A DNA stretch of 64,000 nucleotides from Escherichia coli 042 (GCF_000027125.1 NC_017626.1), one strand, 5' to 3'. Shown: positions 46,105-48,317, counted from the first letter of the stretch. The notes: generated from the sequence alone by a model not told the origin. Made by a program: numbers and translations.

Positions 46105-46347
46105 TGTTTTATCAGGCTCCTCCAGATAATTGTCGTCATGCCGGAAACCCCTGGCGGGGCTATTTTACCGCGACAATTCATTCAGATCATCAATAGTCAG
46201 GGAAGGAAGTAGCAACATTAGCTAACTAATCAATGCGTTGATTGTAAATCCAGCTAAGAGGTGAGGTTTTCAGAGCAGACAACGGTAAAATGTCATGGTA
46301 TTGTTATGTTTAGGTAACAAGAAATTTGTCTGCACAAGGATTACATC

Positions 46348-46605
46348 ATGATTATGGCGAAACTGAAGTCAGCGAAAGGGAAGAAATTTCTCTTTGGTTT
46401 GTTGGCGGTTTTCATTATTGCGGCGTCGGTTGTGACTCGCGCGACCATCGGCGGCGTGATAGAACAGTACAATATTCCGCTGTCTGAGTGGACGACATCA
46501 ATGTATGTGATTCAGTCATCGATGATTTTTGTTTATAGCCTGGTCTTTACTGTGTTACTGGCAATCCCGTTGGGAATTTATTTCCTTGGCGGCGAAGAGC
46601 AGTAA
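46348..46605 (+). CDS. ynaJ: Small membrane protein YnaJ
   Basis: 85 aa, two predicted TM helices. Confidence 0.8.
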   Translation: MIMAKLKSAKGKKFLFGLLAVFIIAASVVTRATIGGVIEQYNIPLSEWTTSMYVIQSSMIFVYSLVFTVLLAIPLGIYFLGGEEQ

Positions 46606-46616
46606 GTAAATAAATA

Positions 46617-46641
46617 TCCTCCGGCATAGCCGGAGGTTTTT
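46617..46641 (+). terminator. Rho-independent terminator of ynaJ
   Basis: cctccggc-ata-gccggagg hairpin followed by tttttc. Confidence 0.65.
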
Positions 46642-47320
46642 CAAATGCGCCTATAAGGCTCTCTTACCAGCCGCGCCCTAACAGGCGCACACGATCTGAC
46701 ATTTGCATCCAACTTCGTTACTTACGGCCCGTAAACGGGCTGCCCGGATAGGGAATCGATAACTGCTCTCCCATTTTATCCTCTTCAAGCTGGTGCTTTA
46801 TGTAATCCTGTATCTTCGCCGTGTTCTTACCCACCGTATCGACGTAATACCCTCTGCACCAGAACTCCCTGTTCCTGTATTTGAATTTCAAATCACCAAA
46901 CTGCTCGTAAAGCATCAGACTGCTTTTCCCTTTCAGATATCCCATAAAGCCTGATACGCTCATTTTGGGCGGGATCTCCACAAGCATATGGATATGATCT
47001 GCACAGCATTCAGCTTCCAGAATCCGTACACTTTTCCACTCACACAGCTTTCTCAAAATACAGCCTATTGCTCTACGCTTCTCTCTGTAGAACACCTGTC
47101 TTCGGTATTTTGGCGCAAATACTATGTGATATTTACAGTTCCATCGGGTGTGCGCTAAGCTCTTTTCGTTCCCCATTGGGACCCCCTTTTGATTTCTTGT
47201 TTGACACTTGCAGTTGCCAGACCGCAAGGTGTTTTAACAAATCAAAAGGGGTTTTAATAACTGGCTCAAAGCTGAAAGCTTTCCGGAACCCCCAGCCTAG
47301 CTGGGGGTTTTCTGTGCACA
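46640..47320 (-). mobile_element. IS200-family (IS200/IS605) insertion sequence; boundaries approximate
   Basis: Contains an IS200-type tnpA; left-end hairpins on the IS strand (cccccagctaggctggggg at 47290-47308 and an RBS-sequestering inverted repeat ccccttttgattt / aaatcaaaagggg); lies between the ynaJ and uspE terminators. Confidence 0.8.
46718..47176 (-). CDS. tnpA: IS200-type Y1 (HUH) transposase TnpA
   Basis: 152 aa from MGNEKSLAHTRWNCKYHIVFAPKYRR...; HUH motif (ADHIHML) and catalytic Tyr region (RGYYVDTVG). Confidence 0.9.
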   Translation of the reverse strand: MGNEKSLAHTRWNCKYHIVFAPKYRRQVFYREKRRAIGCILRKLCEWKSVRILEAECCADHIHMLVEIPPKMSVSGFMGYLKGKSSLMLYEQFGDLKFKYRNREFWCRGYYVDTVGKNTAKIQDYIKHQLEEDKMGEQLSIPYPGSPFTGRK

Positions 47321-47346
47321 AAAAATAGGCCCGTTAACTCGGGCCT
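47321..47346 (-). terminator. Rho-independent terminator of uspE
   Basis: ggcccg-agttaa-cgggcc hairpin followed by a T-run on the minus strand, just downstream of the uspE stop. Confidence 0.6.
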
Positions 47347-47366: not shown

Positions 47367-48317
47367 TTAATCGTCTTCTTCGTCATCCAGTTCAACGGGT
47401 GTCTGATATTGGTCAGGTTTAATGACCAGCAGGTCGCAGCGAAGATGATCAATCACCTGTTCCGCCGTGTTGCCGAGGAATGCTGCTGAAATACCGGTGC
47501 GTCCGACCGTGCCCAGAACCACAATCCCCGCCTGTAAATGCTCCGCCAAATCAGGAATCACCTCTTCTGGCAGACCTTTTTCTACGTGCGTCATGTTTTC
47601 ATTAATGCCGAATTTCTGCCGCAGGGCTTTCATTGCCAGCAAATGTTGCCCACGAATGGCATCGTTATAAACGCTCGGATCAAATTCCGGCAGTTCAATC
47701 GCGATATTAATTGGCGTTACCGGATAAGCGCCAACCAGATGAACTTCGGTATGGTTGACTTGTTCCGCCAGTTCGATCGTCTCTTTGACCAGTTTTTCAT
47801 TGAGCGCATTATGGTACGGCTCTTCACTGGCGAGATTCACCGCCACCAGCGCCTTACCCCCTTCCGGCCACGGCTGGTCTTTCACCATCCACACCGGGCT
47901 TGGGCATTTGCGTAACAGATGCCAGTCCGTTGGCGTAAAAATCACCGCTTCCAGACGGTCATGTTGGTGCGCCATTTTTAGCACCAAATCGTGCCCGCCG
48001 CTGATCACTTCCTGAATGATGGCTTCGAAAGGACGGTTATGCCAGACCACTTTAATTTCAATGGGAACGCCAGCATTGAGATAATATTTTGCCTGCTCGT
48101 GGATCCAGGCTGTACGCTGGCTGATGACGCCCTGACGCATAGCGGTACGTTCGTCCGGAGAGAGCAGGGTGGTCATTTCGTATGAGAAGTCATAGATCGG
48201 CAAAAAGGCTTTAATTTTGCCACCAATCCGTTGATGTAAATAAACAGCTCGCCGCAATGCTGGTTGGTCGTCCTGGTTAGGATCGATAACAACGAGCATG
48301 TTCTGATACATAGCCAT
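47367..48317 (-). CDS. uspE: Universal stress protein E (tandem Usp domains)
   Basis: 316 aa from [18 protein letters not shown]... Confidence 0.92.

Follow-up and report, generated by a model that had tools for sequence, protein, structure and literature searches.

The insertion sequences IS200, IS200C and IS1541 are already known, together with the structures at their left ends and the mechanism of the family to which they belong. In this family, the transposase TnpA binds subterminal hairpins of the top strand, and the cleavage sequence pairs with a guide situated just 5′ of the foot of each hairpin; insertion always places the left end on the 3′ side of a tetra- or pentanucleotide specific to the element (PMC6006769; PMC5027513). 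IS200 has been described as essentially dormant, and its left end harbors a hairpin at nt 12-34 and a leader stem-loop at nt 69-138 (PMC4513863). A copy of IS1541 was reported in Yersinia at the position of the pheA attenuator, between pheL and pheA (PMC3082878). More recently, a preprint of 2025-26 disclosed an enrichment of terminator-like sequences immediately upstream of IS elements, strongest in IS200/IS605, which was read as limiting transposase expression and favoring persistence (10.1101/2025.07.22.666184).

Herein, an element of this kind was analyzed in a stretch of 64,000 nucleotides from Escherichia coli 042 (GCF_000027125.1 NC_017626.1), termed the window, whose positions are counted from its first letter. 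The part of the window at approximately 45-50 kb corresponds to the mppA-ynaI-ynaJ-uspE-fnr-ogt region of E. coli, where the preliminary description of this DNA had placed an IS200-family element in the 3′-3′ gap between ynaJ and uspE, a location that was confirmed. The features of the locus are the following:

46348-46605, plus strand: ynaJ coding sequence, 85 aa, DUF2534, with the stop codon TAA at 46603-46605; from the ORF list and the RefSeq annotation of identical loci and of K-12
46608, no strand: one extra A/T compared with empty sites, the insertion measuring 712 bp and the element 711 bp
46609-47319, minus strand: IS200C, whose top strand reads GTGCACAGAA...GGAGGATATTTATT; ends from the K-12 comparison, four independent copies and the filled/empty pair at yghA-exbD
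46609-46617, minus strand: right-end tip ATATTTATT, IS nt 703-711, up to which all copies are alike
46618-46636, minus strand: right-end subterminal hairpin CCTCCGGCTATGCCGGAGG, terminator-like on both strands; from the DNA fold, and found in all IS200C/IS1541 copies
46718-47176, minus strand: tnpA, Y1 HUH transposase of 152 aa, an intact ORF with H61-I-H63 and with Tyr125 in IQDYIKHQ
47183-47251, minus strand: long leader stem-loop, element nt 69-137, which buries the Shine-Dalgarno sequence; from the RNA fold and inverted repeat I2
47186-47309, minus strand: STnc490 (Rfam RF01405; IS200 leader / Hfq-binding RNA region), full-length match
47287-47309, minus strand: left-end subterminal hairpin AACCCCCAGCTAGGCTGGGGGTT, IS nt 11-33, a known bidirectional IS200 terminator; from folds and an inverted-repeat search
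47310-47319, minus strand: left-end tip GTGCACAGAA, conserved among copies
47320-47326, minus strand: uspE terminator tail ATTTTTT (six T's at 47320-47325), the target sequence abutted by the left end of IS200C
47327-47346, minus strand: native hairpin AGGCCCGAGTTAACGGGCCT, the intrinsic uspE terminator and sole hairpin of the IS-free gap; from terminator scans of the window and of K-12 and from folds
47367-48317, minus strand: uspE coding sequence, 316 aa by the K-12 annotation (K-12 CDS of 951 nt); from the ORF and RefSeq

Judged by its sequence, the element is a copy of IS200C, a known and already annotated insertion sequence that belongs to the IS200 group of the IS200/IS605 family. It is 711 bp in length, in agreement with the approximately 707-711 bp expected of the reference, and tnpA is its only gene. 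Its sequence is identical at 704 of 711 nt (seven substitutions; 99.0%) to three mutually identical copies annotated as IS200C in RefSeq, against which identity was judged, the name being the ISfinder name as used by the RefSeq annotation. Furthermore, it is identical throughout to the copy in strain BEC1-S17-ESBL-09, where tnpA is annotated as WP_000526113.1; TnpA of the window has C39 in place of the S39 of the commoner WP_000526135.1, with 151 of 152 residues shared. The complete IS200-type tnpA of 152 aa and HUH/Y1 type, noticed at the outset from the sequence, is borne out by the match to Pfam Y1_Tnp (E 1.9e-37), by the NCBIfam model NF033573 (transpos_IS200, "IS200/IS605 family transposase"; 145.9 bits, cut-off 55) and by alignment with solved IS200/IS605 transposases in the PDB (Sulfolobus, IS608 and ISDra2). 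The conserved HUH motif H61-I-H63 aligns with DHIH of 2ec2 and 2f4f, and the catalytic Tyr of IQDYIKHQ (Y125) aligns with IKKYIEEQ in the solved transposases. The ORF list contained no tnpB-sized frame inside the 711-bp element, and a search of the window for the left-end hairpin with up to three mismatches revealed no other site.

The left-end hairpins were also correctly recognized in the preliminary description, as demonstrated by folds and by the full-length STnc490 match, which scored 146.4 bits against a gathering score of 56 (E 3.9e-31). The leader RNA fold (z = -4.0) reproduces the published left-end anatomy of IS200, and the terminator hairpin, the stem-loop sequestering the Shine-Dalgarno sequence and the STnc490/art200 region of an IS200-type leader are all present. 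By analogy with the family, the A-rich 3′ part of the left tip together with the next AA is a candidate guide, located just 5′ of the hairpin foot, and the right-end tip is presumed from IS608 to constitute the right cleavage region; the cleavage positions assigned to IS200 are likewise modeled on IS608. No terminal inverted repeats joining the two tips of IS200C were found. The left- and right-end hairpins are direct repeats with 78% identity, GAAAA precedes both of them on the top strand, and the left flank, like the right tip, is rich in T. Two other Rfam matches were dismissed as chance, namely Ysr202 at the right end (29.5 bits against a gathering score of 315), which reflects terminator-hairpin similarity only, and a fluoride riboswitch inside fnr (16 bits).

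The boundaries of the element became apparent from the empty site. The gap between ynaJ and uspE measures 761 bp in the window and 49 bp in K-12 MG1655, so that the ground for refutation named in the preliminary description, a length equal to that of IS-free strains, was not observed. The K-12 site reads TAAGT-AAAAAA-TAGGCCCGATAACTCGGGCCT... and contains a single hairpin, with a terminator score on the uspE strand only. Of the span of 46640-47320 originally assigned to the element, the right boundary (47319/47320) stands, and the true left boundary lies at 46609, with 3 nt between the element and the ynaJ stop codon. The extra base at 46608 may stem from homopolymer slippage or from a 1-nt wobble of the cut; an ancestral allele with seven A's was rejected as its source, because the closest IS-free alleles (the best 12 empty sites) all have six A's and give 206-nt matches to a 207-nt query with seven. 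The same-site copy of strain CFSAN018748 adds exactly 711 bp, between the fifth and sixth T of the tract, and the filled/empty pair at yghA-exbD displays exactly 711 bp inserted after a T7 run, unambiguously and without duplication. Correspondingly, no target-site duplication was seen in the filled/empty pairs (K-12, yghA-exbD and CFSAN018748), with a 1-nt homopolymer ambiguity in the window.

Two flanking sequences were considered as possible parts or passengers of the element and rejected. The hairpin flanking the left end differs in sequence at every site and remains in empty sites, and the 8-nt right-end flank TAAGTAAA, common to the window and the prohibitin/tkt copy and suspected to be carried-over donor DNA, is the native ynaJ stop context in K-12. 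The element separates ynaJ from a hairpin that was formerly common to ynaJ and uspE and supplies a second hairpin of its own. The uspE hairpin and its entire T-tract are untouched, and ynaJ now meets the right-end hairpin with its T5, a canonical arrangement, 12 nt after the stop codon. Since uspE retains its terminator and ynaJ gains this hairpin, the insertion is probably near-neutral. The same conclusion had been drawn beforehand and is plausible, although the reason then given, namely two native terminators, proved incorrect.

At the same locus, an "IS200/IS605-like element IS200C family transposase" is annotated by RefSeq in 14 of 5426 complete E. coli genomes, and the insertion is thus old enough to be common to 14 sequenced strains. 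In all four same-site carriers examined, the position and orientation are the same as in the window. Three of the four contain the window-type variant, and the fourth, CFSAN018748, is a mosaic with four of the seven canonical IS200C bases and one fewer A at the junction than the window, in a strain with 31 matching places. This mosaic could have arisen by gene conversion among the many copies or by a second hit. The most economical history of the 14 carriers is one old insertion, followed by conversion and recombination.

Further insight into the choice of target was gained from other copies. At all four E. coli sites inspected (uspE, tkt, exbD and blaCMY-2), the element's left end comes immediately behind a GC hairpin and T-run, which is the terminator of the co-oriented upstream gene. 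In E. coli PEC011 (L004:351-2258), a recently inserted IS200C copy lies directly behind the blaCMY-2 terminator in an ISEcp1-associated, mobile resistance region, and a second, different IS200/IS605-family tnpA is located about 1.2 kb from it. A larger sample was assembled by scanning for the exact 23-mer of the left-end hairpin in one genome per species, which gave at least 120 stretches, from Y. pestis (IS1541), Vibrio, Brenneria, Dickeya, Edwardsiella and Pluralibacter as well as Oxalobacter, Mailhella/Desulfovibrio, Bacillota and Peptococcaceae MAGs. The scan matches listed, combined with the window and the E. coli loci, yielded 120 distinct non-tandem junctions; a single Y. pestis genome contributes 55 of these, and every junction was chosen by the exact 23-mer.

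Among the matches listed, a structure of at most -10 kcal/mol ending within 12 nt of the junction was present at 97.5% of the 120 junctions, compared with 19% of all T5-run ends and 17% of T5-run ends outside long ORFs, the latter "non-coding" control resting on a crude ORF mask. A strict scan for perfect-stem terminators gave 81% of the 120 junctions (again among the matches listed), 12% of T5-run ends and 15% of random positions. The last five flank bases at these 120 junctions, as far as matches were listed, were TTTTT in 53 cases, TTATT in 17, TTGTT in 11, TTTTG in 11 and TTCTT in 5. Measured from the last G:C pair of the hairpin, the junction in the same matches listed lay at a median of 7 nt (interquartile range 6-8), with 94 of 120 junctions within 6-9 nt, and at the right end of IS200C itself 9 nt separate the hairpin from the tip. 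Moreover, 28 of the 46 complete copies among the matches listed still have T's on their downstream side, which indicates that the cut is measured from the hairpin and is not set at the end of the T-run. The association with a hairpin and T-run extends, among the matches listed, from Enterobacterales to Desulfovibrionaceae and Bacillota.

In Y. pestis, IS1541 also forms head-to-tail dimers, in which one copy has its left end directly against the right-end tip of the other (…GGAGGATATTTATT|GTGCCC or …TATTTATTT|GTGCCC), which implies that the right end itself was used as a target and that the junction wobbles by one T. The dimers were located at L070:~270-370, L071:2660-3400, L073:12600-13340, L117:~4600 and L087:1-45 of the scanned stretches. 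The 23-nt left-end hairpin is common, among the matches listed, to Enterobacterales, Vibrio, Oxalobacter, Mailhella/Desulfovibrio, Bacillota, Peptococcaceae, Elusimicrobiaceae and Saccharibacteria MAGs, and the 10-nt left-end tip varies by lineage while the hairpin stays exact; such sharing would imply either a very wide horizontal spread or some contamination of MAGs. In Dickeya undicola (L056:690-730), a left-end hairpin is symmetrically flanked (GTCTATAGAA-hairpin-TTCTATA…) with no obvious tnpA after it, and may be a solo or palindromic left-end remnant.

Taken together, it is highly probable that IS200C was inserted by a single-strand "peel and paste" process aimed at terminator-like DNA, here the T-tract of uspE. 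By analogy with the family, TnpA of the window would act as a Y1 HUH single-strand DNA transposase, by which the top strand would leave the donor as a single-stranded circle and be integrated into a single-stranded target (PMC5027513). The left end would be joined to the 3′ side of a short, T-rich stretch (TTTTT or TTNTT), in this case provided by the uspE terminator, and this target is presumably read by the A-rich guide GAAAA positioned 5′ of the left-end hairpin. The comparative data suggest that the preferred target would be the entire terminator, with a GC hairpin and a cut 6-9 nt past the stem. The host terminator may be chosen as a mimic of the element's own right end, hairpin plus ATATTTATT, and would then serve as a surrogate right end; alternatively, the host hairpin might simply keep the T-tract accessible in single-stranded DNA. 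The window has a weakly positive GC skew and the region lies on the right replichore by the K-12 map, and the top strand of the element should accordingly be situated on the leading-strand template, which counts against the proposal. Placed behind a host terminator and a terminator hairpin of its own, tnpA would stay silent, which fits the notorious silence of IS200.

Several other explanations of the locus were weighed against this proposal. The preliminary description held that the element had dropped between two pre-existing terminators of ynaJ and uspE and left both intact, and two terminator-like hairpins do flank the tnpA region in the window; on the plus strand, the left one reads CCTCCGGCATAGCCGGAGG followed by TTTTT (46618-46640) and resembles a ynaJ terminator. 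Nevertheless, this account is extremely improbable, as the IS-free gap of only 49 bp contains one hairpin, and the left hairpin is found at a fixed distance from tnpA in every IS200C/IS1541 copy, whatever the neighboring gene. Being absent from the empty site and present in all of these copies, the hairpin at 46618-46636 is the right-end hairpin of the element and not a terminator of ynaJ; of the two terminators thought to be intact, that of uspE is so, and the other belongs to the element. It is likewise very unlikely that the ynaJ-uspE/ynaI region is a hot spot struck repeatedly by different elements, an idea that had arisen from the presence of an IS5 near this locus in K-12. The K-12 element itself is real, since IS5F (insH4) lies between ynaI and ynaJ in K-12, 127 bp upstream of ynaJ, and the sequence-variant IS200C of CFSAN018748 could represent a second hit at the same site. 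However, IS5 belongs to a different family and occupies a different gap, which is free of IS5F in the window strain (46105-46347), and no more than 355 of 5426 complete genomes have its junction, mostly K-12-derived laboratory strains among the matches listed, all of which argues against a hot spot. In addition, 5381 of 5399 genomes show no interruption of the ynaJ-uspE gap, the four carriers examined and the window share one position and one orientation, and a mosaic of two variants is what gene conversion would be expected to produce in a strain with 31 matching places. It is presumably the uspE terminator, and not the locus, that attracts IS200C.

The remaining alternatives concern the terminator association as a whole and the present status of the copy. 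A T-rich pentanucleotide might suffice as the target, the hairpins being a mark of the survivorship of harmless, transcriptionally insulated insertions, in line with the persistence-based reading of the preprint (10.1101/2025.07.22.666184). All data come from standing copies rather than fresh events, and because surviving insertions have been filtered by selection, part of the association could indeed be survivorship. As the full explanation it is nonetheless unlikely: the 17% of T5-run ends outside long ORFs that have a hairpin stand against 97.5% of junctions, the junction is nearly fixed at 6-9 nt from the stem with T's often left downstream, and the element's own right end was used as a target in tandem dimers. 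Besides, the pheL-pheA insertion site is unlikely to be neutral, and the blaCMY-2 copy resides in a recent mobile context. A still less probable possibility is that the window copy is a fixed, immobile relic serving the host as a terminator and small-RNA module. The dormancy of IS200 (PMC4513863), the regulatory RNAs that its 5′UTR yields in Salmonella (PMC5435999) and the seven differences from the common isoform, including C39 for S39, would be compatible with such a role; against it, the copy retains an intact ORF with its HUH motif and Tyr as well as two intact ends, and it is kept by only 14 of 5426 genomes, which gives no sign of selection for it.

Returning to insertion aimed at terminator-like DNA, we tentatively consider a broader reading, possible though on balance doubtful, according to which IS200-group transposases might recognize the DNA form of a host intrinsic terminator, that is, a GC hairpin and a T-rich pentanucleotide 6-9 nt past the stem. 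In the same tentative sense, IS200, IS200C and IS1541 might be regarded as "terminator-homing" transposons, a DNA counterpart of group IIC introns. The literature searched, a coverage outside which key older work falls, reports only the enrichment at family level and nowhere states that IS200-group targets are set by a hairpin and a ruler; novelty can therefore not be claimed for such a rule, which may be under-described.

The locus itself is of little import, as it presents a known IS in a harmless position. Since the hairpin after ynaJ belongs to the element, it should not be taken for a host terminator when 3′ ends or sRNAs are compared between strains. If terminator homing of IS200-type elements is true, their landing sites would be predictable, with attenuators and the 3′ ends of resistance genes (blaCMY-2, for example) among them, their silence and tolerance would be accounted for, and a nearly silent element could reach a high copy number without harm. 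Meanwhile, a structure-reading step would be added to the guide-based target choice known for IS608.

Compared with its closest relatives, the window copy shares the 711 bp, the ends and the hairpin layout of IS200C and differs from it by seven substitutions (among them C39) and one extra junction T. IS200 of Salmonella and IS1541 of Yersinia possess the same left-end 23-mer, leader stem-loop, STnc490 region and right-end hairpin, agree in size (710 bp in Y. pestis) and have the same hairpin and T-run next to the left end. In Yersinia, the left-end tip differs by one base (GTGCCCAGAA) and the copy number is far higher. More distantly, IS608 and ISDra2 have in common with IS200C a Y1 HUH TnpA, subterminal hairpins, and the absence of inverted repeats and of target duplication; in them, too, a guide 5′ of the hairpin foot reads the short specific sequence to whose 3′ side the left end is joined. 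Unlike IS200C, they carry tnpB and target TTAC or TTGAT, with no hairpin requirement in the target reported for them, whereas IS200C carries tnpA only, uses a T-rich target and apparently needs an adjacent hairpin. The window copy should also lie on the other strand than that favored by IS608 and ISDra2, for which a bias towards the lagging-strand template is reported. Bacterial group IIC introns home to sites just after intrinsic terminators. They are retroelements, in which the intron RNA and reverse transcriptase recognize a DNA stem-loop, and share neither homology nor chemistry with the Y1 transposase, yet, like IS200C, they land directly 3′ of a hairpin and T-run, a harmless and transcriptionally quiet niche.
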